In this document: positions 16,221-60,331 of the stretch, one piece after another
Position numbering within the stretch: position 1 is the first letter of the stretch
How the letters are laid out: every line of letters starts with the position of its first letter
From: an uncultured Mycoplasma sp.
Lineage (GTDB): Bacteria; Bacillota_I; Bacilli_A; RF39; UBA660
Direction: 5' to 3'
NCBI GenBank assembly: GCA_902493595.1
Contig: CABUPU010000004.1
Location: 9,958-73,957, forward strand
Length of the DNA: 64,000 nt
Notes under the pieces: model-generated
Database searches by the model: none
Told to the model about the DNA's origin: nothing
What the model saw: the letters and a program-made list of their open reading frames with translations, nothing else
Translations under genes and position numbers: made by a program

Positions 16221-16326
16221 CAAAGTACGCATTTTTTGAAATATAATTTTGCCTAACTTATGCTAAAAAATCACTATTTTTTAGTGAAAACTGTCAAACA
16301 AAAAAATCTCTTTCGAGATTTTAATT
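16221..16326. repeat. ~106-bp direct repeat, left copy (3' UTR/terminator module)
   Basis: About 95% identical to 18852-18958 (1 indel and ~4 substitutions). Contains the terminator AAATCTC-tttc-GAGATTT and ends exactly at the dpnB stop codon. Confidence 0.85.
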
Positions 16327-17190
16327 TAACACTTGTTTTAAAGTGCCATTTTCCAAATCATTAATGTTATACATTGTTTCAAGTTCATTAAATGTTTCTT
16401 TAAGATTATTCTTTGCATCATGCCAACCTAAGCCATCAGTAATCCATATAAACGTTATTCCATCAATTTCCTTTACTTTTTTTGCTAGCATTTCATAACT
16501 TCTTGCAATTTCATTTAATTTAGAACCACTACTTGCATAAAAATTTGTTTCAATTAAATATATTTGTTTAGGAGTTTTTATAACAAAATCAAATCTTTTT
16601 GTGGAAACATTATTTCCAGATAAAGAACTTAAATCAATATTCCATCTTTTCTCAATATCATTTAAGTACATTTCTTTAAAGTAATTTACATCTTTAACAA
16701 AACCAGATTCCTTAATATATTTTTCTACTAAATCTTCCATTAAATGACCACCACGATTTTTTCTACCATTAGAATCAAGACCAACTTCAATTCCTAAAAC
16801 ATAATCATATAAATTATTTATAATATGATTTTGTAATAAATCAAATAGACCACTTTCTTGCATAAACCTAACATAGTCATCCATTGAATAAACCATTTTT
16901 TTAAAGTCAAATAAATATTCATTAATTTCATCCTTAACAAATATTTCAGTAGAACGAACCGCTAAAAGAAGTGGTATACATTCTAAAGTTTCAGGATATT
17001 TAAGCATTATGTTTTTAAAAGCTTCTTCAATTGTTTTACTACCAATTAATGAATTTAAAATATTAAGTTCTACTTTTACTTTATCAACATTTTTATATAT
17101 TTTTTTAAAATCAGCATAATAACTATAATTAGATATACTAGACTTAAAGTTTTTAATCCATTCATTAAAATCTCTTTTCATTTTCATCAC
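16321..17190 (-). CDS. dpnB: Type II restriction endonuclease, DpnII/MboI family (GATC)
   Basis: YVLGIEVGLDSNGRKNRGG, FDFVIKT..YLIETNFY..GSKLNEIARSY and FIWITDGLGW match my memory of R.DpnII/R.MboI. Confidence 0.9.
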   Translation of the reverse strand: MMKMKRDFNEWIKNFKSSISNYSYYADFKKIYKNVDKVKVELNILNSLIGSKTIEEAFKNIMLKYPETLECIPLLLAVRSTEIFVKDEINEYLFDFKKMVYSMDDYVRFMQESGLFDLLQNHIINNLYDYVLGIEVGLDSNGRKNRGGHLMEDLVEKYIKESGFVKDVNYFKEMYLNDIEKRWNIDLSSLSGNNVSTKRFDFVIKTPKQIYLIETNFYASSGSKLNEIARSYEMLAKKVKEIDGITFIWITDGLGWHDAKNNLKETFNELETMYNINDLENGTLKQVLN

Positions 17191-17938
17191 TTTCCTTTCT
17201 TTTAATTGTTAAATCTAAATATTCTTTTTCTTTTTCAATACCGATATACCTTCTTTTTAATTTGCTGGCAACAATACCAGTTGTGCCACTTCCATTAAAA
17301 GGATCTAATATTAAATCATTTTCATTAGTTGAAGCAAGTATAATTTTTTCTAATAATTCTATTGGTTTTTGAGTGGGATGTTTTCCACACTTTTTTTCAC
17401 TTGGTTTGGTAAGTGAGGTTTCCCAAACATCTTTCATTTGTTTATTATTATTAAGTTTTTTCATAATGTCATAATTAAATTTATATTTAACATTCTTTAT
17501 GTCCTTTTTGGCCCATAAAATAGTTTCTGTCGAATGAACAAAACATTTACAACTTATGTTTGGTGGTGGATTTAATTTTTTCCAAGTAATATTATTAATT
17601 ATTTTAAATCCATTTTCCTCAAGGGCCATACCTATAGAATAAATGTTATGCATAGTTCCACTTATCCAAATTGTTCCATCATCTTTTAAAACATCTTTGC
17701 ATAATTTTATCCATTTTTTGTTAAAATTGTGTTTTTCTTTTAAAGTAATAGATTTATCCCAATCGCCTTTATTAACACTAACTATTTTTCCACCACTACA
17801 TGTAATACCATTACTAGATAAAAAATATGGGGGATCAGCAAATATTACATCAATACTTTTAGGTTCTATATTTTTAAGTATTTTTAAAGAATCACCTTTA
17901 TATAATGTAAAATTATCTTTTTCATAGTATGGTTTCAC
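17165..17938 (-). CDS. dpnA: DNA adenine methyltransferase, DpnA-like (N6_N4 MTase family)
   Basis: IFADPPYF (motif IV) and DPFNGSGTTG (motif I), in beta-class order. Confidence 0.88.
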   Translation of the reverse strand: MKPYYEKDNFTLYKGDSLKILKNIEPKSIDVIFADPPYFLSSNGITCSGGKIVSVNKGDWDKSITLKEKHNFNKKWIKLCKDVLKDDGTIWISGTMHNIYSIGMALEENGFKIINNITWKKLNPPPNISCKCFVHSTETILWAKKDIKNVKYKFNYDIMKKLNNNKQMKDVWETSLTKPSEKKCGKHPTQKPIELLEKIILASTNENDLILDPFNGSGTTGIVASKLKRRYIGIEKEKEYLDLTIKRKESDENEKRF

Positions 17939-17947
17939 TTGGCCTCC

Positions 17948-18778
17948 TTAATAATTTGTAATAATAACTTCCTCTACTTTACCTCTTTTATTTCCATTTG
18001 CGTTAATACTTCTTTTAGCATCGATTACATGTATATTAAAACCTATATATAATTCATTTATTAAAGAAGTATTATGATTTGATAACATTACTTTTACACC
18101 TTTATTATCTAACTTTTTAAATACACTTGCAAGTCTTTTTTGTTCCTCTTTATCAAAACCAGTATCTGTATAACTATTAAATGTATGTGTATCTGAATCA
18201 TATGGAGGATCAATATATACAAAATCTCCTTCTTTAGCACTTTCTAAAGAAGTTTCAAAATCCTCACATAAAACTTTAATATCATTCATACTAAGATAAT
18301 TACTTACAGTTATTAAATTATTTCCATCATAAGTATTAACTTTATCTTTTTTTCCAAAAGGAACATTAAATTCATTTTTGCTATTAACTCTATAAAGTCC
18401 ATTAAAACACGCTTTATTTAAATAAATAGTTCTTGCAGCTCTAGTATAGTCAGATAATCTATTAAATGTTTTTTTATTTCTATCTTTATTTCTCATTTCA
18501 TAATAAAATTCTTCATTATGTTTAGCTTCAAAACTATTTAATGAGGCACATAACTTTTTAAACTTATCTTCATCTTTCAAACAACTATAAACATTCATAA
18601 GTTCTTTATTAGAATCATTTATAACAGCTTTTTTTGGTGATAATTCAAAAAGAAGTGCTCCTCCCCCTACAAAAGGTTCATAATATGTATCAAAACTTTC
18701 TGGAACATATTTTTTTAGTTCATTAATTATTTGTCTTTTTCCACCAGCCCATTTTACAAATGGTTTTCCTTTAATCAT
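17948..18778 (-). CDS. dpnM: Dam-type GATC DNA adenine methyltransferase, DpnM-like
   Basis: FVKWAGGKRQ, FVGGGALLF and YIDPPY motifs. Confidence 0.9.
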   Translation of the reverse strand: MIKGKPFVKWAGGKRQIINELKKYVPESFDTYYEPFVGGGALLFELSPKKAVINDSNKELMNVYSCLKDEDKFKKLCASLNSFEAKHNEEFYYEMRNKDRNKKTFNRLSDYTRAARTIYLNKACFNGLYRVNSKNEFNVPFGKKDKVNTYDGNNLITVSNYLSMNDIKVLCEDFETSLESAKEGDFVYIDPPYDSDTHTFNSYTDTGFDKEEQKRLASVFKKLDNKGVKVMLSNHNTSLINELYIGFNIHVIDAKRSINANGNKRGKVEEVIITNY

Positions 18779-18851
18779 AATTTCATCCTTTTCCTACTTA
18801 TTTAGTATAACATGAATAAGAAATTTCTTAAATAAAAAATAGAAAAATTTG

Positions 18852-18958
18852 CAAAGTACGCATTTTTTGAAATATAATTTTTGCCTAACTTATGCTGAAA
18901 AAACACTATTTTTTAGTGCAAACTGTCAAACAAAAAAATCTCTTTCGAGATTTTAATT
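18852..18958. repeat. ~106-bp direct repeat, right copy
   Basis: See 16221-16326. It ends at the stop codon of the cotD-like gene. Confidence 0.85.
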
Positions 18959-19208
18959 AGCATCTTCTATCGTAAATATTTTCTACAACATTTTCTTCAC
19001 AACACGTATTACATGGAGTAAAAGTATGTTTATAAATATGATGATTAATTATTCTAGTATTACAAGGTTTAATATGAGGTACTTCATAGCAAATATATCT
19101 ATGACACACCCTTTCCTCTGGACACTCATAAACTGGTTCACATGTACATCCCATCATATTTTCTACTTTACCCATATCTTCCATAGCAGGTCTTTTATCA
19201 CAATTCAT
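18957..19208 (-). CDS. Cys/His-rich small protein, spore coat protein CotD-like
   Basis: ..PHIKPCNTRIINHHIYKHTFTP.. resembles the CotD family pattern. Strong RBS AAGGAGG. The neighbourhood (gpsB, rnpB, recU, ponA) matches the B. subtilis cotD region. Confidence 0.5.
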   Translation of the reverse strand: MNCDKRPAMEDMGKVENMMGCTCEPVYECPEERVCHRYICYEVPHIKPCNTRIINHHIYKHTFTPCNTCCEENVVENIYDRRC

Positions 19209-19308
19209 AATAGGTAATTCCTCCTTTTACATTATACTATTCGAAAAAATTATACATGTATGGGCTTTTTATATATATCAAAGCATAAAAAAATGATGCC
19301 TTGCACCA

Positions 19309-19917
19309 TTATTTTAATTTTTTATCATTTTTAGGAATAACAAATTCTCTAGTATTATAATAATATTGACATCCACTTATAACACTAAATATTGTTGCTA
19401 TAATTAAGCATATTTTTGCAAGTGGGAAGTGGAAAAATTCACAAGGAAAATTACTAAAGAAAGTTAGTGTTAATCCAACCATCATAAAGGCAGTTTTAAT
19501 TTTTCCCATTGAGGAAGCCGCTACTACTTTACCTTTATTTCCAGAAATCATTTTACAAGTATCAGTAATAATATCACGAGTAATAATAACAACTGGTACA
19601 ACCAAAGGAATCACTCTATCATATGCAAGAATAATAAGTACACCATTAACTAAGATTTTATCAGCAATAGCATCAGCCATTTTACCGAAGTCAGTAACCA
19701 TATTATATTTTCTTGCTATATGTCCATCAAGTTTATCTGTAAGTGAGGCAATTAGAAATAAAGTTCCTGCAATAATATATTTTAAATTAAATGTAACTCC
19801 ATGATATAAATATACTGGCCATGAAAAGCCTAAAGCATGCCATGGTATACATAACATAATAAGTATAATAAATGCTAAAACAATTCTTGAAATTGTAAGT
19901 TTATTTGGTAAATTCAT
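19309..19917 (-). CDS. pgsA: CDP-diacylglycerol--glycerol-3-phosphate 3-phosphatidyltransferase
   Basis: CDP-alcohol phosphatidyltransferase motif DKLDGHIARKYNMVTDFGKMADAIADK. Confidence 0.9.
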   Translation of the reverse strand: MNLPNKLTISRIVLAFIILIMLCIPWHALGFSWPVYLYHGVTFNLKYIIAGTLFLIASLTDKLDGHIARKYNMVTDFGKMADAIADKILVNGVLIILAYDRVIPLVVPVVIITRDIITDTCKMISGNKGKVVAASSMGKIKTAFMMVGLTLTFFSNFPCEFFHFPLAKICLIIATIFSVISGCQYYYNTREFVIPKNDKKLK

Positions 19918-19920
19918 TTC

Positions 19921-20388
19921 CTACTCCTTATAACTTATCTCACTAGCAACTCTAGTGTTAACAGTAATTTGTTTTACAGCCCAGAAAACTGCAAAAACTG
20001 CTAAAATAACAATTAATACATATACAAGTACATATAAAACATTATTTGGTTTCTTTTCATGTCTTGTATATGGTGAAAATACTTTTTCTTCATTACCTTT
20101 AGTATTTTCCTCGATTTCTTTTTCAATATCTTTTACAGGTATTTTTGATGTTGTTTCAAAAACATATTCATTAAACTCATCTACTATTTTATCAGCATCA
20201 AGTCCTAAATATTTAGCATAATTACTAATATATTTTTTTAATGCAAATATGTCTTGAAATGCACCAGTTTTACCATCTTCGATATTTTCAAGAATTACTT
20301 TTTCAAGATTAAGATCACTACTTACTTCCTCAAGGGAAAGACCAGCAGCCTCTCTAGTATCTAGAAAAAGACTTCCAATATCTTTCAA
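19921..20388 (-). CDS. RodZ-like HTH membrane protein
   Basis: N-terminal HTH (TREAAGLSLEEVSSDLNL) and one C-terminal TM helix. Preferred start is TTG at 20388 (GGAGAG RBS), because the track extension to 20466 runs into rnpB. Confidence 0.6.
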   Translation of the reverse strand: MKDIGSLFLDTREAAGLSLEEVSSDLNLEKVILENIEDGKTGAFQDIFALKKYISNYAKYLGLDADKIVDEFNEYVFETTSKIPVKDIEKEIEENTKGNEEKVFSPYTRHEKKPNNVLYVLVYVLIVILAVFAVFWAVKQITVNTRVASEISYKE

Positions 20389-20454
20389 ACTAAATCTCTC
20401 CTTAATTAAAAAATAAAAATAATATCTTAATAAGCCATGTTCTGTACCATTACT

Positions 20455-20762
20455 GGTGACAAACATTTATCTATGTACAAAGTACATCTAGTCTTAGGTT
20501 CGTTTTCCCTTGACCAGCTCCCCTACCAAAATTTGGGTTTCTCACTCGCGGGGTTTACCACGTTCCACTTCTTTTATTTCTAAAAGACTCGTCTCTTTGG
20601 CACTTTTATACCTAATCATTTCATTTTCAGAAATTTTCGGAGCCGTTAGCATATGCTACCTTAAGTTATTTATTCCTTAAGCACGAACATATTATCCATC
20701 ACAGGATAAGTGAGCATGGACTTTCCTCAATAAAACTAAAAGTCTTACAGCGTTTGTCTAAA
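20455..20762 (-). ncRNA. rnpB: RNase P RNA (bacterial, compact Firmicutes/type B-like)
   Basis: Minus strand contains GAGGAAAGTCCATGCTC (the universally conserved CR-I/P4 strand), GTGGAACGTGGTAAACCCCGCGAGTGAGAAACCC, and ACGAACCTAAGAC (the P4 3' strand). Candidate P1 pairing is GACAAAC (20752-20758) with GTTTGTC (20458-20464). Ends are approximate. Confidence 0.85.
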
Positions 20763-20766
20763 GATA

Positions 20767-21093
20767 TTATTCATTTCTTCCATAAACAATTTTTTCTAAG
20801 TTACTTATTCTTTTTAGTAAATCAATGTTAGTAACTTGTTTGTTAGAACTATCTTCTTGCGTTTCAAGTTTTTCTTTTAACGCACGAATTTCTTGTTTAA
20901 GTGTATAATTATCAGATGTTAAATCATTAATTTGACCTTTAAGATTCTTAATAATATTATTATACTCAGTATAATCTCTTATGATCATATCAAGATATTT
21001 ATCAACCTCTTGAGGCCTATATCCTCTTGCATCAATTTTGAAATCATGCTCTAGTATCTCCCCTGGTGTTAAATAAATCTTTTCATTATACAT
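20767..21093 (-). CDS. gpsB: Cell-cycle protein GpsB (DivIVA-domain)
   Basis: LTPGEILEHDFKIDARGYRPQEVDKYLDMIIRDY plus a coiled coil. The ATG at 21093 has RBS GGAAGGTG. Confidence 0.85.
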   Translation of the reverse strand: MYNEKIYLTPGEILEHDFKIDARGYRPQEVDKYLDMIIRDYTEYNNIIKNLKGQINDLTSDNYTLKQEIRALKEKLETQEDSSNKQVTNIDLLKRISNLEKIVYGRNE

Positions 21094-26797: not shown

Positions 26798-26873
26798 AAT
26801 CTCTCCGTAAATATTTTAACATAATTTTATATTAAAAAAAAGGACATATAGTCCTAGATTGTTTTAAAATAAA

Positions 26874-27569
26874 TTATTTCTTAATATCTTCATTATTTAT
26901 ACTATCTTTAATAGATTCTGCTATTTTACCAACACTTTTAGCTATTGTTGGAGTAGCTTTATCTATCATTTCGTCTGCAATAGGCATAACCTGTTGTGCA
27001 TGAAATGCTGTTATTTTTCTTTTATTTGCTATATAGAATAAATTAATAGATATTCCTAAAGTAATCAATAAAATCATAACTGCAGGCATAAATTCAAATG
27101 TATTAAATATTAAATTTGAAGTTTTATCATTATCTTTTTGCTCTTCAACATTTTTTAATTCTTCTTTTAAAGTACAGTATTTAGAGGTTATTGCATTTGT
27201 TTTATATTCATCAAAATCACAATGAGGAAAACTTGGATCAAGTGCATTAATAATTATATATAAATCATATGCTTCACCACTTTGGTAATCTGGACTATCT
27301 TTAAGTCCTTTTGCTTTCAATTCTTCTTTTTTAGTTTCAAGAATAGTTTTTTCTTCATCGATTTGAGAATTTAAACTATTTATTCTTTCTTGTTTTTTTT
27401 GCTCTGTAAATTCAGTATTATTTGTATTAGATTTTGTTTTCATAAATGCTTTAGCAAATAAATACCCACTACCTAAAATACCCGCAACTAAAATAATTGT
27501 AGCAATAATTGTAATATTTCTTTTTACCTTTTTATACTTCTCTTCGCTTAAATATTCACTATTTCTCAT
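26874..27569 (-). CDS. Hypothetical 2-TM coiled-coil membrane protein
   Basis: ORF. Preferred ATG is at 27569 (AAAGGAG RBS); the track start is 27611. Confidence 0.5.
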   Translation of the reverse strand: MRNSEYLSEEKYKKVKRNITIIATIILVAGILGSGYLFAKAFMKTKSNTNNTEFTEQKKQERINSLNSQIDEEKTILETKKEELKAKGLKDSPDYQSGEAYDLYIIINALDPSFPHCDFDEYKTNAITSKYCTLKEELKNVEEQKDNDKTSNLIFNTFEFMPAVMILLITLGISINLFYIANKRKITAFHAQQVMPIADEMIDKATPTIAKSVGKIAESIKDSINNEDIKK

Positions 27570-27690
27570 AATCAAACTCCTTTCAATATCATTATAACAT
27601 TTAAAATACAAATTTCAAACATAAAATTACCACTTTAAGTAAAAGTTATGTTAAATTTTTTGTTCCATAATATAACTAAAGGTGGTATTT

Positions 27691-27984
27691 ATGATAAATG
27701 ATGAAAAACTAGATTTTAAAAGTATGCAAGTTTTAAGAGAAAGTAAAAAGATAACACAAGTTAAATTAAGTTTAATGGTAGGAGTTTCTCAACAAAGTAT
27801 AACATACTATGAAAGCAATACTCGTATTCCCTCATTGCCTGTAGCATTTAGAATCGCAAAAGCACTTGGAACAAGTGTTGAAGGATTGGTTAATAGCAAT
27901 GACATAATTGCTAAATATTATTCGTTATGTGAAGCAGATAAAGAAACTGTTAATAAAATAATTGAAACATTATATAATAAATAA
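27691..27984 (+). CDS. XRE-family HTH transcriptional regulator
   Basis: HTH ITQVKLSLMVGVSQQSITYYESN. The ATG at 27691 is preceded by AAAGGTGG; the track GTG at 27682 lies inside the RBS. Confidence 0.75.
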   Translation: MINDEKLDFKSMQVLRESKKITQVKLSLMVGVSQQSITYYESNTRIPSLPVAFRIAKALGTSVEGLVNSNDIIAKYYSLCEADKETVNKIIETLYNK

Positions 27985-28314
27985 ATTTTAAAGCAACTTT
28001 AATCATATTTATTTTGACTTAATTAGAAAGGAAAATTAATTGCAAGTTTATAATTACTTATACAAAATAAAACTACTTTCAGTTTAATTTGAAAGTAGTT
28101 TTATTTATGATATATAATAATTGAAACAACATAGTAATAGAAAAAATAACCCTTACGGATTACTTTTCTGCCTAAGGGATCCCGTACTTAACATACGGTT
28201 AGAACATTCGCACATATAATGCTTGGTTCGATACATCTTAAAGGTCTTCTAAAGATATTAGATCATTTCTTTTAGAATTTACAACTAATTCTTCAAAATT
28301 TTTTCTTTTTCCAA

Positions 28315-29253
28315 TTATTTAATACTTTTTGTTAATGAAAGTTTTTGTACATTATTTTTATTATTTTCTAACTGAATACTTGGATTATAGATAAGCTTAT
28401 CATCCTCAAACCAAGAACCACACACAATTCCGCTTCTATGTATTATTGCAACATTAAGATATGTTGGTCTACGATTTTGAATATGAGTTGCTAGTTTATC
28501 ACCTACACAAATACGAACTGGTATGCCTTGATAATTAGCATTTAAGTATACATTTCGTCTTCTTATATCAGTTTCATTTGATATATTTAGTTTTTTTAGT
28601 GTGTAATTAAAAACATCATCTGTTTCTTTATTGCCAGGTAAAAGACGATTTAAATATAGTGGAATTCCTAATCTAGAATATTCATCGATATCAAATGATT
28701 CATCAATTGTAACTCTTAAGCAAAGTTTTTCTCCAAAAAGAATTTTAGCCTGTTCAATAGTCAAAATTGGTTTTGTGGCTTTGAATATTTTTTTGTTTAT
28801 TTCTTCGTTAACAGAATTGCGATGTAAATTTATATGATTAATTTTAGTTATACCACTAAAATAATCTTCGTTAAGTGCTGCACCATTAGTATTCCAGTTT
28901 ATATATGAATCGGGAAAGTAAGCTTTTATTAAATCTATTAAACTATTAAAATCTTTAGAATTAAGTGTCCCACCAGTAATAGCAACATTTTTTATATTAG
29001 GAAACTCCCTTAATACTTTTTCGCATATTTTCAGAAAATTTGCATTATCTATTGAATTTTTTCTAAGATATGTATCAATACAATATTCACAATTTGCATA
29101 ACAAGGTTCTGGTAAATTTATTACTATTGAATTAACAAAATCTAAACAAGGAATGCCAAAAACTTCACGAAAATGTGCATTAAAAGTTTCTATTCCTAGT
29201 TCTTTTTGAGCCGCTAATAATTCTTCATTTGCCTGATAATCTGAATCAATCAT
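28315..29253 (-). CDS. Orphan radical SAM enzyme, subfamily unknown
   Basis: CxxxCxxC cluster CYANCEYC and a GGE-like motif VAITGGTLN. No SPASM-type extra Cys cluster seen. Extended -10 TGATATAAT upstream. Confidence 0.8.
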   Translation of the reverse strand: MIDSDYQANEELLAAQKELGIETFNAHFREVFGIPCLDFVNSIVINLPEPCYANCEYCIDTYLRKNSIDNANFLKICEKVLREFPNIKNVAITGGTLNSKDFNSLIDLIKAYFPDSYINWNTNGAALNEDYFSGITKINHINLHRNSVNEEINKKIFKATKPILTIEQAKILFGEKLCLRVTIDESFDIDEYSRLGIPLYLNRLLPGNKETDDVFNYTLKKLNISNETDIRRRNVYLNANYQGIPVRICVGDKLATHIQNRRPTYLNVAIIHRSGIVCGSWFEDDKLIYNPSIQLENNKNNVQKLSLTKSIK

Positions 29254-29364
29254 AAAAATGCCTACTTTTTATGAGATATTATATCATAATTTTTTATAAA
29301 ATAAATAAATAAATATTTAATCAAAATAAAACTCGAACTAAAAAGTTCGAGTTAGGTATTTTAT

Positions 29365-29452
29365 TGGTGCTTGTAATCGGGGTCGAACCGATACTTTCTT
29401 TTGGAAAAATAGATTTTGAGTCTATCGCGTCTACCAATTCCGCCATACAAGC
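29365..29452 (-). tRNA. tRNA-Leu (anticodon CAA)
   Basis: Manual cloverleaf: acceptor GCTTGTA/TACAAGC, anticodon arm ATAGA-CTCAAAA-TCTAT, long variable arm, T arm ATCGG-TTCGACC-CCGAT, encoded CCA. A terminator hairpin follows. Confidence 0.9.
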
Positions 29453-29479
29453 AACAAACAAATACATTATATCATTTAA

Positions 29480-35028: not shown

Positions 35029-35105
35029 GGCGGGGTATATCAACTGGCTAGATAGTTCGGTTCATACCCGAAATGTTGGGGGTTCGAGTCCCTCCCCCGC
35101 TACCA
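35029..35105 (+). tRNA. tRNA-Met (anticodon CAT; elongator or Ile2-lysidine type, not initiator-like)
   Basis: Manual cloverleaf: D arm TATC/GATA, anticodon arm TTCGG-TTCATAC-CCGAA, T arm GGGGG-TTCGAGT-CCCTC, encoded CCA, and a G1-U72 wobble. Two terminator hairpins follow. Confidence 0.88.
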
Positions 35106-35233
35106 AATAAATTTATGTCAAACATTAATGTTTGACTTTAATAAATAACTAATTCTAGTAAGGGTTAGTTTTTTTATACTATTAAAACTGTTTAAAAATC
35201 AATTAAGAAAAATAAATTTTTATTTAAAAAGTA

Positions 35234-35262
35234 TTGCATATTGTCAATAAATAGTGTATATT
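35234..35262 (+). promoter_or_regulatory. Promoter upstream of the Abi gene leader
   Basis: TTGCAT - 17 nt - TATATT. Confidence 0.5.
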
Positions 35263-35274
35263 ACTTATTGAGAT

Positions 35275-35314
35275 GTGCCTAGGAAACTTTAGAAGCCCTA
35301 GGTCTTTTTCATTT
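35275..35314 (+). repeat. 40-bp hairpin repeat, left copy (in the Abi leader)
   Basis: GTGCCTAGGAAACTTTAGAAGCCCTAGGTCTTTTTCATTT matches 36250-36289 at 39/40 positions. It forms CCTAGG..CCTAGG stems followed by a U-run. Confidence 0.85.
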
Positions 35315-35328
35315 TATAGGAGGTAAAA

Positions 35329-36216
35329 ATGGCTAAAGAATTTAAATCAACAAATGAATTATTAGAAATAATTAATTCAAAAGGTTTATTAGTAAAAGAT
35401 AATAATAATTTCAGATATCTAATTGGAAAGTACTCATATTATTCAATAGTAAATACTTATAAGCTGATATTTAAAATTGGAAATAACTATAAAAATAACG
35501 CTTCGTTCGAAGAAATATTTGCAATGTATAAGTTTGATAAGAACTTAAAAATAATAATGCTTAAATATATTCTTGAAATTGAAGCTGTTATTAAAACAAA
35601 AATTGCTAATCTATTTGCTGAAAAGTATGGATTAGAAGATTATTTAAATATTAACAATTTTGATTTAAAAGATGATAATTCTAATTTAGAACATATAGAA
35701 AAATTAATTGAAGAAATAAAAAATGAAATTGATAAAGGAAATGGTAAACATGATGCAATAACTCATTATATGAATAAGTATGGATTTGTTCCACCTTGGG
35801 TTGTTACTAAAATATTATCTCTTGGAACTATTAGTAAATTTTATGGTTTAATGAAACAACAAGATAGACAAGAAATAAGTAAGCAATTTCATATAAATGA
35901 TAGAATATTAAAAAATATTCTTGGTAATTTAACATCAGTTCGTAATATAGCAGCTCACGATGATAGATTATATACCTATAGAAGTACTTTCTATATTAGA
36001 TTAGACAAAACTAAAAAATCACCAGATAAAGTATTACATACAAATATGTATATAATAATTAAATCGTTGGAATTATTATTAGAAAACGATCAAGCAATTG
36101 AAATGAAAAACTTAATTATAAAGGAATTAGATATATTAAAAAATAGTTTAACTTCAATAAAAATTGATGAAGTATTAAAGGTAATGGGATTCGATAAGAA
36201 CTATTACACTGCATAA
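35329..36216 (+). CDS. Abi_2 (AbiD/AbiF-like) abortive-infection protein, HEPN-type Rx4H motif
   Basis: 295 aa. The N-terminus is typical of AbiD/F proteins and the RNIAAH motif (SVRNIAAHDDRLY) is present. RBS AGGAGGT. Confidence 0.75.
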   Translation: MAKEFKSTNELLEIINSKGLLVKDNNNFRYLIGKYSYYSIVNTYKLIFKIGNNYKNNASFEEIFAMYKFDKNLKIIMLKYILEIEAVIKTKIANLFAEKYGLEDYLNINNFDLKDDNSNLEHIEKLIEEIKNEIDKGNGKHDAITHYMNKYGFVPPWVVTKILSLGTISKFYGLMKQQDRQEISKQFHINDRILKNILGNLTSVRNIAAHDDRLYTYRSTFYIRLDKTKKSPDKVLHTNMYIIIKSLELLLENDQAIEMKNLIIKELDILKNSLTSIKIDEVLKVMGFDKNYYTA

Positions 36217-36249
36217 ATATTGATTCACAGCATATAATAATAATGAAAA

Positions 36250-36289
36250 GTGCCTAGGAAACTTTAGAAGCCCTAGGCCTTTTTCATTT
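36250..36289 (+). repeat. 40-bp hairpin repeat, right copy (Abi terminator)
   Basis: See 35275-35314. This copy has the fully paired stem (C instead of T). Confidence 0.85.
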
Positions 36290-36590
36290 ATCTCATTATA
36301 AAAGTAATGATAAACATGATGAAAAATGAATACTAATATAAGATTAATTGTTTATGAAATATTTTTGAAGTTTCAAACATACAACGTATTTGTACGGAAT
36401 AAATATTTAATAGATAGAAATATCTATTTTTTTTTAAACAAAATAAAGTGTTCAGTCAAGAACACTTTTTTAGAGGTGATTATTTATAATAAATAATCCA
36501 ATATAATTTTAGCATGTTTTTCTATAAACCTCAACGAACAAGTGAGTATAATTTTACTTAATTAATGAGAAAATAATATTAGAAAGACTG

Positions 36591-51705: not shown

Positions 51706-51720
51706 ATGAAAAAAAGAATA

Positions 51721-55047: not shown

Positions 55048-55090
55048 TTTCTATCACCACTTTAATTATATAAAAAAAACTAGCATTTTA

Positions 55091-56308
55091 CTAGTTTAAT
55101 TTATCTTCGATTTCCATAAGTCGATTATATTTACAAATCCTTTCTCCTCTTGAAACAGAACCTGTTTTAATAAAATCAAGATTTAGTCCTACACCTAAGT
55201 CCGCAATAAAGGTATCCATTGTTTCACCACTTCGATGAGAAATAATTGTTTTATACCCATTTTTCTTTGCGGTATAAATAGTATCTAAAAATTCAGTTAC
55301 ACTACCAACTTGATTAGCTTTAAGAAGTATTGCATTTCCAGCACCAAGTTCTATACCTTTTTCTAAATATTTTTTTTGAGATACAAATAAATCATCACCA
55401 ACAATCATTATTTTACCATTAAAATATTTAGTTAATTTACTAAAACTTTCATAATCATTTTCTTCGAAAGGATCTTCAATACTTATAATTGGATATTTTT
55501 TTATTAAATCTACATAATAATCAAATAATTCATCCTTTGATAACTTTTTACCATCGACTAAATAGCTATTTCCATCGTATAGTTCTGATGCTGCAACATC
55601 AAGGGCAAAAAATACATCAGTTCCTGGAGTATAACCACTTTCTGTAATAGCCTTTACTAAAATCATTAAGGCTTCTTCATTATTTTTTAAATCTGGTGCA
55701 AATCCACCTTCATCACCAACACCTGTTGATAAATGATAACCCTTTAAAATAGATTTTAAAGTATTAAATATTTCACTTGCACATCTAATTCTTTCTTTTT
55801 CCTCTTTTTGAACAGGAACAAGCATAAACTCTTGAATATCTAAATTATTATCAGCGTGTTTTCCACCGTTAATAACATTAATCATTGGTACAGGCATATT
55901 AAATTTACCAGTACTAACAAACTCAAATAATTCTTTACCTTCGAGTTTTGCTAAACATTTTAAAGCACATAGTGATACCCCTAAAATGGCATTAGCTCCA
56001 AGTTTAGATTTATTTTCAGTTCCATCAAGTTCAAGCATCTTTTTATCAACATTTTTAATATTTAAATCCATATTATAAAGTGCTGGGAATATTATTTCAT
56101 TAACATTTCTTACAGCCTTTAAAACACCTTTACCATGATATCTTTCATCATTATCACGAAGTTCTAACGCTTCCTTACTTCCTGTTGAGGCTCCAGATGG
56201 AATAGATGATACAGCCTCAACTCCATTTTCTAAGGCCAAAGTTACCTCTAAAGTGGGATTTGATCTACTATCAAGAATTTCTCTTGCTTTTATTTCTTTT
56301 ATCTTCAT
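55091..56308 (-). CDS. eno: Enolase
   Basis: MKIKEIKAREILDSRSNPTLEV.. and SHRSGET. Confidence 0.95.
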   Translation of the reverse strand: MKIKEIKAREILDSRSNPTLEVTLALENGVEAVSSIPSGASTGSKEALELRDNDERYHGKGVLKAVRNVNEIIFPALYNMDLNIKNVDKKMLELDGTENKSKLGANAILGVSLCALKCLAKLEGKELFEFVSTGKFNMPVPMINVINGGKHADNNLDIQEFMLVPVQKEEKERIRCASEIFNTLKSILKGYHLSTGVGDEGGFAPDLKNNEEALMILVKAITESGYTPGTDVFFALDVAASELYDGNSYLVDGKKLSKDELFDYYVDLIKKYPIISIEDPFEENDYESFSKLTKYFNGKIMIVGDDLFVSQKKYLEKGIELGAGNAILLKANQVGSVTEFLDTIYTAKKNGYKTIISHRSGETMDTFIADLGVGLNLDFIKTGSVSRGERICKYNRLMEIEDKLN

Positions 56309-56314
56309 AATTAC

Positions 56315-56893
56315 CTACCAAAATATCTTTGTTATTTCATTTGCTCTTTTCTTAAGAAGTATTAAATCTGTTATATCAAGAATACTTGAAAGCACTAAAA
56401 ATGTTCCAATTACTTGAGTAACCGTAAGTGCGGAAAATGGATTTGATAATACTAATATTCCAAATACCATAAGCATTACTCCAATTACAAAAGTAATTAA
56501 CCAAGATGAATCATCACCTATTTTAAACCATACACCATAAGTTACTTTATTTGCTCCGAATACAATTAAATATAATCCTAAACAAATTGTTAAAAATGAT
56601 GTAACTGAAAATGGAACTAATATAATAATTGCTCCGATTAAAACAAGTATTATTCCAAAAAGCAAATTAAGTGAATAAAGTTTTGCACCATTTCTTGATA
56701 TAAACTTATAAATTGTATTAATACCTGAAAGTGCAAATAAAGCTCCAGTTATAACACCAATTAACTTATTAGACATTTCTGGCATAAATATAAGTACTGC
56801 TCCAATTAAAGCAATAACAATTGAAGTTACTATAGACATCATAATAAATTTATTAAATCTATCACTTATTGTCTCTCTAACTATTCTTCCCAT
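56315..56893 (-). CDS. HdeD/DUF308-family membrane protein
   Basis: Six TM helices in repeating pairs. The track TTG start (56947) spans a TATAAT-like box, so I prefer the ATG at 56893. Confidence 0.55.
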   Translation of the reverse strand: MGRIVRETISDRFNKFIMMSIVTSIVIALIGAVLIFMPEMSNKLIGVITGALFALSGINTIYKFISRNGAKLYSLNLLFGIILVLIGAIIILVPFSVTSFLTICLGLYLIVFGANKVTYGVWFKIGDDSSWLITFVIGVMLMVFGILVLSNPFSALTVTQVIGTFLVLSSILDITDLILLKKRANEITKIFW

Positions 56894-56996
56894 ATTTTTT
56901 TCACATCCTAACATATATATTATAATAATTTTTTTTACTAATTGCAATTATTTATTTTTAATGATATAATATTCTCTTTAAAAAAGGAGGATAAAT

Positions 56997-58235
56997 ATGC
57001 AAATAAGAACAATTACTTTAAAAGAATTTCAAGATTTTTCTGAAAACTGGGAACATCAAAATTTTCATCAAAGTATTAGTTATGCTCTTTTAAAAAGTGA
57101 AGAGGGCTATGAATATGAAATGATTGGCTATTTTGATGGTGATTCAATAGTTGCTAGTGCTCTTGTACTTGTTCAAATGATTAATAGTTATCTATATGCA
57201 TATGTTCCCGAAGGCTTTTTAATTGATTATAAAAATGAAAACTTACTAAATAATTTTACTAAAGATTTAATAAACTTCTATAAAAAAGAGGGTATTGCTT
57301 TTATAAGAATAAATCCTACAATACCTATTGCTAAAATAGATAATAAAACAAAAAATCCTATATATAATGATAACTACCGTATAATAGAAATATTAAATAG
57401 ATGCGGTTATATAAAAATAGATACCTCTAAAGTATTTACTTCAATACTACCTACTTATGAAGCAATTGTAAATTTAGATAGTTTTAATATAAATAATTTA
57501 AATAAAAATGTTAGAAATAAAATTAGAAAATGTGAAAGAAAAGGTTTAATTATAGAAAAATCTGATGCACTAAGTATGGATAAATTATATAAATTTATTA
57601 AAAATAAAATACATAAAGATATGTTTCATTATAGTGATTATTATAATATTTTTAATAAAGAAAATGCTATTGATTACTTTTTAGTTAAAATAGATAATGA
57701 AAGTTTAGCAATAAATAGTCAAAAAGCTTATGAAGAAGAAAAAGAAAAAAATGAACTTTTAAGTAAAAAACTTCTTAAAGTACCAAGTGAAAAAAATATT
57801 AATAAAAAGATGAATTCTGATAAAGCACTTCTTTGTTTAAAAGAGGATATACTTCTTTCAAATAAATATCTTGCTAATAATGAAGATAATTATATAGCGG
57901 GAGCTCTTGTTATAAAATGCAAAGATAAAATATCTATTTTAGTAAGTGGTTATGATAAAAAATATCAATCATTTTCACCAAATTATTTCTTATTTTATAA
58001 AATATTAATGAACTATAAAAATAATTATAAATTTGCCTCTTTAGGGGGTGTCTCTGGTAACTTTTCAAAAGATAGTAAATATTATGGTCTTGACAATTTT
58101 AAAATGGGATTTAAACCAGATATATATGAATATATTGGAGAATTTGATTTAATATTAAATAAAATAAATTATTATTTCTTAAATAAAAAGAATTTAGTAG
58201 AAAAAGAATTTCAAAAAAATAAGTATCTAAAATAA
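56997..58235 (+). CDS. FemAB-family peptidoglycan interpeptide-bridge aminoacyltransferase
   Basis: 412 aa with the two-GNAT-halves-plus-coiled-coil-insert layout typical of FemX/MurM. Strong RBS AAGGAGG. Confidence 0.72.
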   Translation: MQIRTITLKEFQDFSENWEHQNFHQSISYALLKSEEGYEYEMIGYFDGDSIVASALVLVQMINSYLYAYVPEGFLIDYKNENLLNNFTKDLINFYKKEGIAFIRINPTIPIAKIDNKTKNPIYNDNYRIIEILNRCGYIKIDTSKVFTSILPTYEAIVNLDSFNINNLNKNVRNKIRKCERKGLIIEKSDALSMDKLYKFIKNKIHKDMFHYSDYYNIFNKENAIDYFLVKIDNESLAINSQKAYEEEKEKNELLSKKLLKVPSEKNINKKMNSDKALLCLKEDILLSNKYLANNEDNYIAGALVIKCKDKISILVSGYDKKYQSFSPNYFLFYKILMNYKNNYKFASLGGVSGNFSKDSKYYGLDNFKMGFKPDIYEYIGEFDLILNKINYYFLNKKNLVEKEFQKNKYLK

Positions 58236-58242
58236 CAGATAC

Positions 58243-58446
58243 TTATTTTTGTAATAATAAATAAAGTTTTAAATATATAGAAATATCTTCATTATTATTT
58301 AATAAAATATTATATAAATCTATAGTCCTAATTCCCATTTTATATGCAATATCTACCATATTTATTTTATTACTAGCAATTAGTTTTAAACATCTATTAG
58401 ATATATTAGTTATAAAATCATTTTTTTCTTTCATTAGTTTCTCCAT
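58243..58446 (-). CDS. Small hypothetical protein with a possible HTH
   Basis: 67-aa ORF. INMVDIAYKMGIRTIDLYNIL looks HTH-like. Confidence 0.4.
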   Translation of the reverse strand: MEKLMKEKNDFITNISNRCLKLIASNKINMVDIAYKMGIRTIDLYNILLNNNEDISIYLKLYLLLQK

Positions 58447-58527
58447 AAATTACTTCATTTATTAATTTTTTATTTTTATTTATAAAATTAAAAGTTAAAT
58501 CAATTATATTATTTTTATTACCAAAGG

Positions 58528-59556
58528 CTAATATATAAATATTATTATTATATTCAATGTTAGTGCTTGCTCACCCAAAGTATTAACTCTTATTATATAA
58601 TTACTATCTATATTAACCTTTACTGGTTCAATACCTTTTTTATAGTCTAAATTACCCATCTGGAGTTTATTTAATAGTTCTATTGGTATATTTATATCTG
58701 TTAAGTTAATAACTTCATTAGGCATCTCAAATACGTTTTCTTTAGGGATAATTTTTTTACATTCTTCATAAATATCATACATACTATCAAGTAATTTAGT
58801 TATTTCTTCATCCGAGGATATATTAGAGTTAATCATTATATCTAACTTTCTTTCGAGTGTTTGTAAAACAGTTAATAAAGTAATAAAATTAACTTCAGGG
58901 TACATAGCATTATCAAAATCTAAATATGGTTTTGCAAGTGATAATATACTTACTACTGCTTCATTATTTAAATAATCTTTATATAATAATTCATTACTTT
59001 TAAGAAATGCTATTATAGAAATATATTTTTCATTATGAAAAAAGTTCTCTTTTACTTTGTTATCTCTTTTTGGAAGTTCAACTTTAGAAAGAGATGCATC
59101 AAAATTATTCTCAACAGGTTTTCTTTTATTAGGTTTATAATTAGATAAAACTATATTTATTTCACTAATAGAAAATTTATGTTTCATCATAAATTTAGTT
59201 ATAAATGAATAATCAAGTGATCCATTATCAAAATCCTCTTTTAGATCAGATAGTTCATAATATCTTTTATCAACATTTTCAAAAATAGAATTATTTAATA
59301 TTGTTGATATAATAGAATCATATAGTGAAAATTCATAATAATCTTTTTCTGTTAAATTTTTACCCTCTATAATTAAATTTCTAAAATCATTTTTAAAGTA
59401 TTTATTATTTTCAGGGTAGTCTAAAAGAGGATATAATTTTTTTATATCCATCGAAGAAGTAAACTTTTTTAATATACCTAAAAAATTTAATTCGGATAAA
59501 ATCTCTTTATAATACTCTAATAAATAATTATTAAATTTGTCCATTGTATTTGTCAT
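58528..59556 (-). CDS. Hypothetical 342-aa protein
   Basis: ORF with an upstream TTGCAA-N17-TAAAAT promoter module. No recognisable motif. Confidence 0.6.
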   Translation of the reverse strand: MTNTMDKFNNYLLEYYKEILSELNFLGILKKFTSSMDIKKLYPLLDYPENNKYFKNDFRNLIIEGKNLTEKDYYEFSLYDSIISTILNNSIFENVDKRYYELSDLKEDFDNGSLDYSFITKFMMKHKFSISEINIVLSNYKPNKRKPVENNFDASLSKVELPKRDNKVKENFFHNEKYISIIAFLKSNELLYKDYLNNEAVVSILSLAKPYLDFDNAMYPEVNFITLLTVLQTLERKLDIMINSNISSDEEITKLLDSMYDIYEECKKIIPKENVFEMPNEVINLTDINIPIELLNKLQMGNLDYKKGIEPVKVNIDSNYIIRVNTLGEQALTLNIIIIFIY

Positions 59557-59576
59557 ATACTACTCTACCCTAGATA

Positions 59577-59640
59577 ATTTTAACATAATATAATTAAAGT
59601 TGCAAATAAAAAAACCACGAAATTACTTCAGTGATTTTTA
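59577..59640 (-). repeat. Terminator-plus-promoter module, distal copy
   Basis: Shares AGTTGCAAATAAAAAAACCACGAAATTA..GTGATTTTTA and TTTTAACATA with 60270-60331. Contains a hairpin plus U-run followed by TTGCAA (59600-59605) - 17 nt - TAAAAT (59577-59582). Confidence 0.8.
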
Positions 59641-59674
59641 AAATTTATTATACTTTTATATTTTTTAAATATGT

Positions 59675-60244
59675 TTAGTACCATTTTTGTAATTCGGGGT
59701 TTTCCCTATTTAATACTAATTTTTTTCCTTCCATTTTTGATGATTCATAGTACACATCACAAATACAGTCAAACTTTAACTCGTTATTACTACGACTTAT
59801 TTTAACACCTCTTTTTTGAAACTCATTATATATTTTTCTTAAATTAAAACCAACAAATTTGTTTAAAACTTCTTCCCATATATTATTTTTATATAAAATA
59901 CTTCCTCTTACATCATGTTCTAAAGAATATTCCTTGTTAAGAATAGAAAAAAATCTTGTTTTATCATTTTGTAAATTTGTAATTTTTAAAACATTATCAA
60001 TCCCTTTAAAAGTTGATAAATATTTAATTCTATATACCTTTGGAATAGGATTTCCAGCATTTTTATAAAACCATTTTTGTAATTGCTTTATGTTATCAAA
60101 AAATAATGGGCTTTTTTTATAAGTACTTGTATGTGCTGGAATATAAACATCACTATTTATTTCATCACTATAATAATACTCACCACCATCGTAAGATATT
60201 TCATAAGGAACAATATATAATAGTTCTATATCATTTTCATTCAT
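59675..60244 (-). CDS. Hypothetical 189-aa protein
   Basis: ORF bracketed by the duplicated terminator/promoter module. No motif recognised. Confidence 0.6.
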   Translation of the reverse strand: MNENDIELLYIVPYEISYDGGEYYYSDEINSDVYIPAHTSTYKKSPLFFDNIKQLQKWFYKNAGNPIPKVYRIKYLSTFKGIDNVLKITNLQNDKTRFFSILNKEYSLEHDVRGSILYKNNIWEEVLNKFVGFNLRKIYNEFQKRGVKISRSNNELKFDCICDVYYESSKMEGKKLVLNRENPELQKWY

Positions 60245-60269
60245 ACCAAAACCTTCTTTCTTGCACTAT

Positions 60270-60331
60270 ATTTTAACATATAATGGGTTGAGTTGCAAAT
60301 AAAAAAACCACGAAATTAATCGTGATTTTTA
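60270..60331 (-). repeat. tuf terminator plus promoter module, proximal copy
   Basis: Minus strand reads AAAAAUCACGA-uuaauu-UCGUGGUUUUUUU, then TTGCAA (60293-60298) - 17 nt - TAAAAT (60270-60275). Confidence 0.8.

Follow-up and report, generated by a model that had tools for sequence, protein, structure and literature searches.

Three loci within the window (the whole 64-kb stretch of DNA that we analysed) have accessory genes bracketed by long direct repeats, and we think it probable that these real repeat-bracketed units have two different origins. At the DpnII and tuf loci the repeat is a resident intergenic module, made of the upstream gene's terminator and the downstream gene's leader or promoter, and the architecture matches a published class called 'insertion with long target duplication'. 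At the Abi_2 locus, to judge from sequence conservation, the repeats are a covarying hairpin that belongs to the Abi_2 unit, not duplications of a host terminator. Since two loci fit a known pattern and the third is apparently an Abi_2 regulatory hairpin, the data do not point to a new general capture mechanism, and a new mobility mechanism is not established.

The window shares 94–98% identity with uncultured Bacilli of the gut that are relatives of "Mycoplasma sp. CAG:472", and the G+C content of the genome is about 25%. The loci used for comparison all come from short-read metagenome assemblies, in which repeats could collapse or be mis-joined; many independent assemblies concur.

Direct repeats and the genes they bracket

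The repeat pairs reported by the first-pass annotation, at three loci and at the edges of a 12-kb island, all exist:

DpnII, 16218–16330 and 18849–18962: about 110 bp, of which 30 bp are identical and 80 bp match at 96%, with one indel
Abi_2, core 35275–35314 and 36250–36289: 39/40 matching; extended 35257–35314 and 36233–36289: 51/57 matching
tuf orphan, 59577–59640 and 60270–60331: 56/59 aligned positions matching, 8 gap positions, with an identical 28-bp core
12-kb island, 2380–2406 and 14362–14388: 27/27 identical

The island repeats fall outside 16221–60331, the range given in the earlier finding. Ungapped scores of the repeats are 71, 37, 30, 28 and 27, well above the best of 40 dinucleotide-preserving shuffles (22). 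At about 25% G+C, short AT-rich matches are plentiful, but scores this far over all shuffles, and the same structures in dozens of independent assemblies, led us to reject chance matches or assembly artefacts as a vanishingly improbable explanation. At the DpnII, Abi_2 and tuf loci alike, accessory genes are bracketed, and the common architecture of repeat, accessory gene or genes, and repeat is real. The three repeat sequences are mutually unrelated.

Insertion of a transposon or IS was also rejected: the repeats are direct and 40–110 bp long, exceeding, as had been noted before, the short (2–14 bp) target-site duplications made by transposases, and a transposase is absent. The earlier statement that the 64 kb contains no integrase or transposase agrees with our scan, in which no such domain was found in the window's ORFs of at least 80 aa.

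The repeats had been described as host terminator modules, which is correct in part. Folding places a stem-loop followed by a T-run in every repeat of the three loci, and the tuf hairpin passes a simple terminator scanner; the Abi hairpin, with its 13-nt loop, and the DpnII hairpin, with just 2 G-C pairs, both fail it. The DpnII and tuf repeats, however, contain more than a terminator, and those of Abi_2 are not host terminators.

Terminator-to-promoter modules at the DpnII and tuf loci

The DpnII locus has the following features:

18957..19208, − strand: 83-aa host gene, whose terminator begins the module; kept in all loci L011–L020 and L031–L061
18849..18962, − strand: module copy 1, from the stop codon of the 83-aa gene through hairpin 1 and hairpin 2 to ...GCGTACTTTG (from repeat extents and fold)
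within 18849..18962, − strand: hairpin 1 of module copy 1, AAAATCTC-GAAA-GAGATTTT plus a T-run
18779–18848, − strand: the DpnII cassette's own promoter/leader, 5' of dpnM
16321..18778, − strand: DpnII cassette (Pfam MethyltransfD12, N6_N4_Mtase, DpnII)
17948–18778, − strand: dpnM, cassette gene (Pfam)
17165–17938, − strand: dpnA, cassette gene (Pfam)
16321–17190, − strand: dpnB, cassette gene (Pfam)
16218..16330, − strand: module copy 2, abutting the dpnB stop codon and 5' of the promoter of the 133-aa gene
15739..16137, − strand: disrupted 133-aa gene (ORF fragments 16006–16137 and 15739–15957), the native gene 3' of the module

The repeat starts at the stop codon of the upstream gene and extends as far as the promoter region of the downstream one, and the insert is 2.5 kb long with repeats of about 110 bp. 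Strains without the insert have a single module after the 83-aa gene. About 12 empty loci have one module at this site and the DpnII-type and 132-aa-type alleles have two; L056, which carries DpnII plus both of the paralogous 132-aa and 133-aa genes, has three. When empty and occupied alleles are paired (L011 with L019, and L031 with L056), both repeats align to the one copy. In three species-representative genomes the module core is restricted to the DpnII site. Two unusual alleles were also seen: in L053, dpnB and a partial module are joined to gyrA, and in L059 a genuine IS3-family element lies inside the module.

Modules at the junctions are hybrids of neighbouring copies, as DpnII copy 2 in other strains illustrates. 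In L036, L037, L046 and L057 the second module matches, at all but the left diagnostic site, the copy found after the 132-aa gene, and because only this site differs, the module is a crossover product. The first module of L031 and the middle one of L056 have the same sequence.

At the tuf locus a similar arrangement surrounds a gene that is not part of a restriction-modification (RM) system:

60270..60334, − strand: module copy A, comprising the tuf terminator hairpin (60303–60330) and a TTGCAA-17-TAAAAT promoter (60270–60298)
59675..60244, − strand: 189-aa orphan gene (ORF)
59577..59640, − strand: module copy B, with a variant terminator hairpin and the same promoter, driving a 342/380-aa downstream gene

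The complete promoter is thus present in both copies, and the insert is 0.63 kb long with repeats of about 63 bp. The 189-aa protein matched nothing in Pfam, PADLOC, PHROG or NCBIfam, and a homologue search found none beyond its own 90% cluster. Its gene is missing in L001, L004 and L005, each of which keeps exactly one module. The empty junction in L001 and L004 consists of hairpin A and spacer B, and that in L005 of hairpin A, an A-type spacer and the B-side flank; as the L005 flanks are nearest to those of occupied strains, the insert must have been lost independently at least twice.

Insertion with long target duplication of RM genes is a process reportedly described by Nobusato and colleagues in 2000. 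The class defined by Furuta, Abe & Kobayashi in 2010 comprises RM units of <20 kb flanked by direct repeats of >30 bp that occur as a single copy in a related genome without the insert (PMC2853133). For RM systems, then, the route that the first-pass annotation had called little-described was already in print (PMC2853133). Both the DpnII and tuf loci have inserts of <20 kb with repeats of >30 bp, and at both the repeat is single-copy in empty relatives (for tuf, L001, L004 and L005 compared with the window). As this class also specifies, mobility genes are absent and the repeats are not dispersed, dispersal having been checked for the DpnII module core in the three representative genomes. R and M genes are both present at the DpnII locus (two methylases and the DpnII endonuclease), but not with the tuf orphan or Abi_2. 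The published cases also lie at the 3' ends of genes, and their mechanism was unknown (PMC2853133). The DpnII locus shares with them a small RM unit, long direct repeats, a lack of mobility genes and a repeat that is unique in the genome. The loci described here differ in that the host is one of the uncultured gut Bacilli, a whole terminator-to-promoter module is duplicated as the target, one module brackets different cargo in arrays of up to three copies, and the non-RM orphan behind tuf has the same architecture, which argues against a mechanism requiring restriction activity.

The order dpnM-dpnA-dpnB is also that of Streptococcus pneumoniae. In that species, according to what Lacks and colleagues are said to have found in 1986, DpnI and DpnII are alternative cassettes at one chromosomal site that can be exchanged through flanking homology. 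The cassette in the window differs in being bracketed by a duplicated host module as well, and can therefore be lost on its own.

Could the repeats instead descend from a tandem duplication of the module and its downstream gene, one gene copy later being replaced by foreign cargo or diverging past recognition? The 132-aa and 133-aa genes with a module before each form a plain 654-bp tandem duplication in two species representatives, the tandem paralogues are intact in L013, L031 and L033, and a DpnII-type allele could be derived by swapping out the 132-aa gene. L056, however, has DpnII besides both paralogues, similarity between the 189-aa orphan and its downstream neighbour was not found, and the swap needs two illegitimate joints precisely at module boundaries. 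We therefore regard this history as decidedly unlikely. Insertion with duplication of the module leaves every gene with a terminator and a promoter. Once in place, the 60–110-bp repeats can be shown to act as substrates for homologous recombination, and whole alleles probably spread among strains by recombination in flanking genes or in the modules.

Loss and proposed gain of the inserts

Empty and occupied alleles at all three loci differ by exactly the insert and one repeat, as had been anticipated, and the predicted loss by recombination between repeats is visible as different or hybrid junctions. The same precision would result from what the first-pass annotation proposed, namely general, reversible and recombinase-free capture in this lineage of circularised DNA by a single Campbell-type crossover at intrinsic terminators acting as neutral landing pads. 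Two further observations suit that proposal: the occupied tuf copies resemble reciprocal hybrids of a resident (L001-type) module and a second module, with the 28-bp identical core as a possible crossover site, and in L065 a 38-bp stretch of the local terminator downstream of the tRNA is duplicated so as to flank the Abi_2 unit. Campbell capture nevertheless fails to explain how the first repeats arose, since a circle could recombine there only if it carried the host module beforehand. Homologous dpnM-dpnA-dpnB units, about 69% identical, occur on Staphylococcus plasmids without modules, and the Abi_2 repeats belong to the cargo. Integration of a whole circular replicon was rejected, as only cassette genes lie between the repeats, with no vector backbone. 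Moreover, deletion alone gives the same patterns, and the polarity favours loss: the tuf repeats are about 14% divergent and the strains at most 2%, and deletion junctions arose independently at least twice, so the direction in the data is loss rather than gain. The 14% divergence around an identical 28-bp core fits an old duplication maintained by constraint or gene conversion, and equally a crossover between non-identical sequences. Overall we consider Campbell-type capture unlikely.

The 12-kb island, treated as a looser case, lies in a hypervariable hotspot for defence genes:

2380..2406, + strand: 27-bp exact repeat at the left edge, containing a tandem TTGTACCTAAA x2
2407..14361, − strand: 12-kb island, in the hypervariable region 3' of NUDIX
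14362..14388, + strand: 27-bp exact repeat at the right edge, exactly where L018 homology ends

Its cargo consists of a type I RM system (hsdR/M/S), an 886-aa unknown protein, a HigB-like/HigA-M78 pair and a DUF7695 protein, and other strains carry alternative contents downstream of NUDIX. The 27-bp repeats look att-like. Flanking repeats were not found on other inserts at the same hotspot, which also counts against Campbell-type capture.

These repeats raise the alternative that a site-specific recombinase encoded elsewhere acts on the hairpin modules or on the 27-bp repeat, in the manner of an integron or of an island mobilised in trans. All the module repeats contain hairpins, the 27-bp repeat holds its tandem 11-mer beside 63-bp tandem hairpins that resemble arm-type sites, integrases or transposases occur in the hotspot versions of L015, L017 and L059, and some Abi_2 homologues elsewhere are carried on elements bearing an integrase or a serine recombinase. 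Against this stand the 64 kb without a recombinase, the lack of relationship among the three repeat sequences, and the variation of crossover points within modules, from which homologous rather than site-specific recombination is expected. We consider action by such a recombinase very unlikely.

An integron array resembles the DpnII site in being a cassette array with a hairpin-containing repeat after each cassette and a number that varies among strains. Here, however, there is no IntI, crossovers are spread along the repeat, the cassettes have their own promoters, and the repeat is a host intergenic region; the integron assignment was rejected, the window having no Phage_integrase-type domain. 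Minimal mobile elements of Neisseria are strain-specific cassettes that move by transformation and homologous recombination; like the cassettes at our loci they sit between conserved genes and have no mobility genes, and they are not generally defined by flanking direct repeats. More speculatively, and with only a modest chance of being right, host terminator-to-promoter modules of these gut Bacilli with small genomes could serve as recombinase-free, integron-like junctions, so that a gene of any kind, once it has gained one copy of a module, would be open to insertion, stacking (as in the arrays of up to three modules), swapping among strains and clean excision by general recombination.

A hairpin that accompanies Abi_2 genes

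The Abi_2 locus has the following features:

35106..36407, + strand: whole Abi_2 unit, beside tRNA-Met (35029–35105), absent from the state-0 strains L024 and L026, with AATAAAT-like short repeats at its bounds
35257..35314, + strand: 5' hairpin unit, lying between promoter and RBS; it has a -10-like box, a hairpin of 7+3 bp whose loop GGAAACUUUNGAAGCC is conserved, and a U-run
35329..36216, + strand: Abi_2 (AbiD/F-type HEPN) gene (Pfam Abi_2, 2.5e-45; PADLOC AbiD)
36233..36289, + strand: 3' hairpin unit, the second repeat copy, just past the stop codon

A tRNA-targeting integrative island was considered here and rejected: the unit begins just past the CCA end of tRNA-Met, has only the short repeats at its bounds, and has no integrase.

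The single origin that had been proposed for the three loci does not extend to Abi_2, where the repeat is a cargo-borne covarying hairpin found in unrelated genomes. Abi_2 homologues in four unrelated contexts, with identities of 84, 79, 71 and 51%, have the hairpin both 5' and 3', and the arrangement of hairpin and terminator between promoter and RBS of the toxin gene is conserved with covariation in five contexts. Compensatory changes occur in 4/7 outer stem pairs, 99% of cells are paired, and none of 500 shuffles equals this. Across 488 kb, a covariance model of the hairpin matched solely beside Abi_2 genes. Recombination between the two copies is shown to remove the toxin gene, leaving a solo-hairpin scar: in the state-1 scar one hairpin is kept together with the promoter of Abi_2 and the trailer, and state-0 strains have none of these. 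L065 has the 5' hairpin only, without a 3' copy.

The Abi_2 protein is homologous to PbAbiF (8VZ6; 8vz6_A, E = 6e-18), with RNIAAH aligned to the catalytic motif RNSCCH, and it contains the R-x4-H motif of AbiF-type HEPN proteins. The AbiFCd-RCd22 system of C. difficile pairs an AbiF/Abi_2 toxin with an ncRNA antitoxin, two copies of which are bound by the protein dimer (PMC12373285). With AbiF/ncRNA systems (PMC12373285; PDB 8VZ6) the locus shares a HEPN protein with an RNxxxH motif, the order promoter, ~33-nt hairpin motif, U-run terminator, RBS and gene, the upkeep of the stem by compensatory changes, and, like RCd22, a pair of hairpins for each gene. It differs in that the copies are split before and after the gene, whereas those of RCd22 type are in tandem upstream, and in that the 3' copy comes with a -10-like box of its own. 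The Rfam abiF family RF03085 also gave no match to the hairpins at E ≤ 10, nor on five homologous loci at E ≤ 1. The hairpins would thus form an Abi_2-associated structured RNA element, with one copy in the 5' leader and one after the stop codon. Given the homology with AbiF systems already characterised, the hairpin is most likely a premature terminator and protein-binding antitoxin RNA of the HEPN toxin. On a narrower reading, it may be a new class of AbiF antitoxin RNA that flanks its toxin gene and doubles as a built-in deletion switch.

The Abi_2-flanking repeats are accordingly better read as the toxin's RNA partner than as insertion scars. A very AT-rich uncultured gut lineage keeps an RM system, an Abi toxin and an orphan gene in precisely losable configurations, and population metagenomes show all of the intermediate alleles. 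The long target duplication class now extends to a context new at the phylum level and to cargo other than RM genes, which weakens the published idea that restriction-induced breaks are the driver. If the reading of host modules as junctions is true, intergenic regulatory modules would provide a self-neutral platform of general use on which defence and orphan genes are shuffled.

The repeat-bracketed architecture described in the first-pass annotation was confirmed. The ungapped repeat scores (71, 37, 30, 28 and 27) are all above the maximum of 22 reached in 40 dinucleotide-preserving shuffles, and the cargo is as described: dpnM, dpnA and dpnB at the first site, an Abi_2 protein at the second, and at the third, behind tuf, a 189-aa protein (the orphan) that has no family match in Pfam, PADLOC, PHROGs or NCBIfam.

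Direct repeat pairs in the window
16218-16330 and 18849-18962: DpnII cassette; about 110 bp, with 30 identical bp and a further 80 bp at 96%, one indel
35257-35314 and 36233-36289: Abi_2 gene; 51/57, core 39/40
59577-59640 and 60270-60331: tuf orphan; 56/59 aligned, 8 gap positions, 28-bp identical core
2380-2406 and 14362-14388: 12-kb island; 27/27

Every repeat folds as a stem-loop with a T-run after it, and the hairpin at tuf is the only repeat hairpin that passes a simple terminator scanner. The repeats comprise more than terminators. The DpnII repeat starts at the stop codon of the upstream gene, takes in two hairpins and reaches the edge of the next promoter, and both tuf copies (copy A, behind tuf, and copy B, before the next host gene) carry a full TTGCAA-17-TAAAAT promoter with TG upstream. 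We refer to the repeat unit at these two sites as a module.

The window has a G+C content of about 25%. Besides RNase P class B and two tRNAs, it encodes typical Bacillota housekeeping genes, among them fus-tuf, RNase J, RNase Y, RecU and FemAB. Of the species-representative genomes, a pattern scan matched only three: “Mycoplasma sp. CAG:472” and, from the Hadza gut, two MAGs labeled “uncultured Bacilli”. These are 94-98% identical to the window; every related locus comes from human-gut metagenome assemblies. No integrase or transposase domain is present in any scanned window ORF of at least 80 aa.

Alleles at the tuf and DpnII sites

By exact look-up of the EF-Tu protein we obtained 10 contigs spanning the tuf locus. 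In seven, tuf is followed by a 188/189-aa gene and then a 342/380-aa gene, and in three (L001, L004 and L005) the 380-aa gene lies directly behind tuf, with exactly one module in between. The junctions differ: in L001 and L004 the copy-A hairpin is joined to the copy-B promoter spacer, and in L005 the A-type spacer is retained and joined to the B-side flank. The best reading of these empty alleles is that deletion occurred at least twice independently, through recombination at different points in the repeat. The two repeat copies are about 14% apart, against a divergence of only 0.3-2% in flanking DNA among strains, and L005 is closest to occupied strains, so the occupied state is old relative to the sampled population.

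A search for homologs of the orphan, made to trace its source, found none outside its own cluster. An origin by tandem duplication, with the orphan as a paralog of its downstream neighbor, was rejected because the two have no similarity. That neighbor (58528-59556, 3' of the orphan) encodes 342 aa in the window and in one other strain (L002), and 380 aa elsewhere, overlapping a 63-aa ORF; the shorter length in the window strain suggests a truncating change.

For the DpnII site we compared loci found by exact look-up of the pgsA protein (L011-L020) and by a module-core scan of metagenomes (L034-L061). The position 3' of an 83-aa host gene is an insertion hotspot.

Alleles 3' of the 83-aa gene
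Empty: NUDIX follows a single module; about 12 loci
132-aa type: module, 132-aa gene, module, 133-aa gene, methyltransferase; about 10 loci, 2 of the 3 species representatives among them
DpnII type: module, DpnII cassette, module, 133-aa gene; window, L018, L032, L036/L054, L046/L047 and others
DpnII variant: DpnII-type layout with other middle genes; L019
Both: DpnII cassette, 132-aa gene and 133-aa gene in that order, with three modules; L056

The 132-aa and 133-aa genes are tandem paralogs, and the repeat at this pair runs through the promoter into the gene, which makes it a plain 654-bp tandem duplication. In the variant cassette (L019:9982-12562), dpnA is replaced by unrelated 490-aa and 368-aa genes between dpnM and dpnB, and the two modules are still at its ends.

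Modules at this site have mosaic sequences. The middle module of L056 and the first module of L031, another strain's locus, are identical over 135 nt, and the second module of four loci (L036, L037, L046 and L057) equals the copy behind the 132-aa gene except for one diagnostic base near its left end, an exception that marks it as the product of the crossover that removed the 132-aa gene. Across the three representative genomes the module core occurs at the DpnII site only, so we rejected the reading of the module as a dispersed repeat. Staphylococcus plasmids carry units about 69% identical to the three-gene cassette, and because this homology ends with the coding region, the module belongs to the host site and not to the cassette. 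A phage or plasmid vehicle carrying cassette and module together was rejected because the match covers the coding part alone.

Several further variants were seen around this site. In one strain an IS3-family insertion sequence (L059:249-1514), encoding a 92-aa OrfA with an HTH and a 263-aa OrfB with DDE/rve-like sequence, lies inside hairpin 2 of the module; genuine transposable elements thus exist in the species and have targeted the same module. No flanking repeats were found around an insert of 494-aa and 127-aa genes (L016, L038), and an 8.6-kb seven-gene insert that one strain has between pgsA and the 83-aa gene (L047:3550-12140) lacks flanking direct repeats. A second dpnM-like gene 3' of NUDIX (L050, L052) was rejected as an independent insertion with its own duplication, since it lacks flanking repeats. 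The disrupted 133-aa gene lies beside a SAM-methyltransferase (15075-15761) with a match to the PADLOC model mad2 (mads_2; 5.6e-19), and the native genes at the DpnII site may themselves be defense-related. On a low-coverage 3.4-kb contig (L053:2700-3200), dpnB is followed by the first ~77 nt of the module, and the sequence then passes into a bidirectional terminator and a convergent gyrB-gyrA; this junction is either a rearrangement broken inside the module, a second location of cassette and module, or a chimeric assembly.

The Abi_2 unit and its hairpin

We read the allelic states of the Abi_2 locus from loci found by exact look-up of the RNase J protein.

Allelic states of the Abi_2 locus
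State 0 (L024, L026): tRNA-Met directly abuts HTH-gene-side sequence; no hairpin
State 1 (L021, L028, L030): Abi_2 unit minus the gene and one hairpin; promoter and trailer kept
State 2 (window and four others): unit of about 1.3 kb with promoter, hairpin, Abi_2, hairpin and trailer

Because the promoter and trailer of the unit are kept in state 1, this state is a deletion scar and not a virgin landing pad. Homologs of Abi_2 at 84%, 79%, 71% and 51% identity lie in four unrelated genomic contexts (a ZnuA/SufC interval, an FtsX/serpin interval, an integrase-bearing island, and an element with a serine recombinase and Bro-N), and all four have a matching hairpin between promoter and RBS and another just 3' of the stop codon. 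In an alignment of 11 copies the hairpin loop, GGAAACUUUNGAAGCC, is invariant or nearly so, and the stem has compensatory double changes in 4 of its 7 outer pairs, with 99% of cells paired (0 of 500 shuffles equaled this). A covariance model built from the hairpin copies found matches solely beside Abi_2 genes in the 488 kb searched. The covarying hairpin has thus been kept around Abi_2 in unrelated contexts, which makes the repeats part of the Abi_2 unit and not, as had been proposed, duplicated host terminator modules.

AbiF/Abi_2 proteins are HEPN toxins under an upstream ncRNA with hairpin motifs and a terminator; this RNA acts by premature termination in cis and by protein binding in trans, and the PbAbiF dimer binds two RNA copies (PMC12373285). 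The window Abi_2 protein is homologous to PbAbiF (8VZ6, E = 6e-18), and the two align at the catalytic RNxxxH motif. By analogy, the hairpin is likely to function as an AbiF-type toxin-controlling RNA. One feature of AbiF membership is lacking, in that the Rfam abiF model RF03085 does not match the hairpin, and no credible Rfam family was found for it; compared with AbiF systems, the RNA arrangement here is a modest variant.

A locus in another organism partly favors the original theme. At L065:2849-3926 an Abi_2 unit with 75% identity lies between tRNA-Met and a SIR2 gene. It has the 5' hairpin only, the 3' copy being missing. Its flanking repeats (38 bp, 95% identical) duplicate the local terminator 3' of the tRNA, and the final codons of the Abi_2 ORF extend into the repeat.

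The 12-kb island and the defense hotspot

The block between the 27-bp repeats contains type I RM genes, a HigB/HigA-M78 pair, a DUF7695 protein and an unassigned 886-aa protein. It lies in a hypervariable region 3' of NUDIX where other strains hold quite different defense genes, and homology to L018, a DpnII-type locus, stops exactly at the repeat. The 27-bp GTACCTAAA-repeat contains a tandem 11-mer, and it adjoins two tandem 63-bp hairpin units just inside the right border (14231-14343). Each unit has a 9-10-bp inverted repeat (CATTGAGAA...TTCTCAATG) around GCCAC direct repeats, and the units may be arm-type binding sites; a similar GGTGGCA...TTGTACC layout occurs at the end of an integrase-bearing island (L066). 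The border region has a third copy near 2195-2290, partial and degenerate, and no exact copy of the 27-bp repeat was found in the fetched loci of other strains. The borders look att-like, though the window has no recombinase.

The region behind NUDIX is a classic defense hotspot, with a different set in almost every strain among L011-L020: type I, IIG and LlaJI-like RM systems, GmrSD, an OLD-family ATPase with a UvrD helicase, Fic, an SLFN-like helicase and the competence protein CoiA. Directly 3' of NUDIX, and conserved at the hotspot border in several strains, is a 42-aa ORF (14466-14594, minus strand) whose N-terminus is signal-like and whose tail is rich in Cys, His and Gly (GCCSHHGGVVGCSS). 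Searches of PADLOC, PHROGs and NCBIfam were uninformative about the function of the other unassigned window proteins. A second strain-variable spot (26800-29460), beside tRNA-Leu (29365-29452), holds a 245-aa protein, an HTH protein and a 312-aa radical-SAM/viperin-like protein in the window, and nothing, a DUF3800 protein or other genes in other strains; it has no significant flanking repeats.

Recombination between repeats and long target duplication

The repeats are recombination substrates: the genes they bracket are deleted or reshuffled, with crossover points spread along the repeat. The underlying process would be ordinary homologous recombination, and alleles would pass from strain to strain when homologous flanks or modules recombine. 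Comparison of alleles thus upholds the polymorphism and loss that the first-pass annotation predicted, in the one-module empty alleles at tuf and DpnII, the scar alleles at Abi_2 and the hybrid junctions. The common origin it gave to the loci is not supported, as the modules at DpnII and tuf belong to the host site and the Abi_2 repeats, as the homologs show, are the cargo's own hairpin. Nor is its proposal of Campbell-type capture of circular DNA: a circle would need to carry a host module beforehand, and there is no vector backbone between the repeats, so this model cannot explain the first duplication at DpnII or tuf. Campbell-type integration is possible as the carrier of an already bracketed cassette into an empty site.

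For RM systems, the route is also not a little-described one. “Insertion with long target duplication” is a published class of RM gene insertions with repeats of 46-423 bp and no mobility genes, several of them at gene 3' ends, for which involvement of restriction breaks has been suggested (PMC2853133). It is the closest published description of the DpnII and tuf architecture. The tuf orphan shares the architecture but lacks RM genes, which argues against an RM-specific mechanism. The findings at DpnII, tuf and Abi_2 fit kinds that are already known, and their modest novelty is the RNA arrangement of Abi_2.
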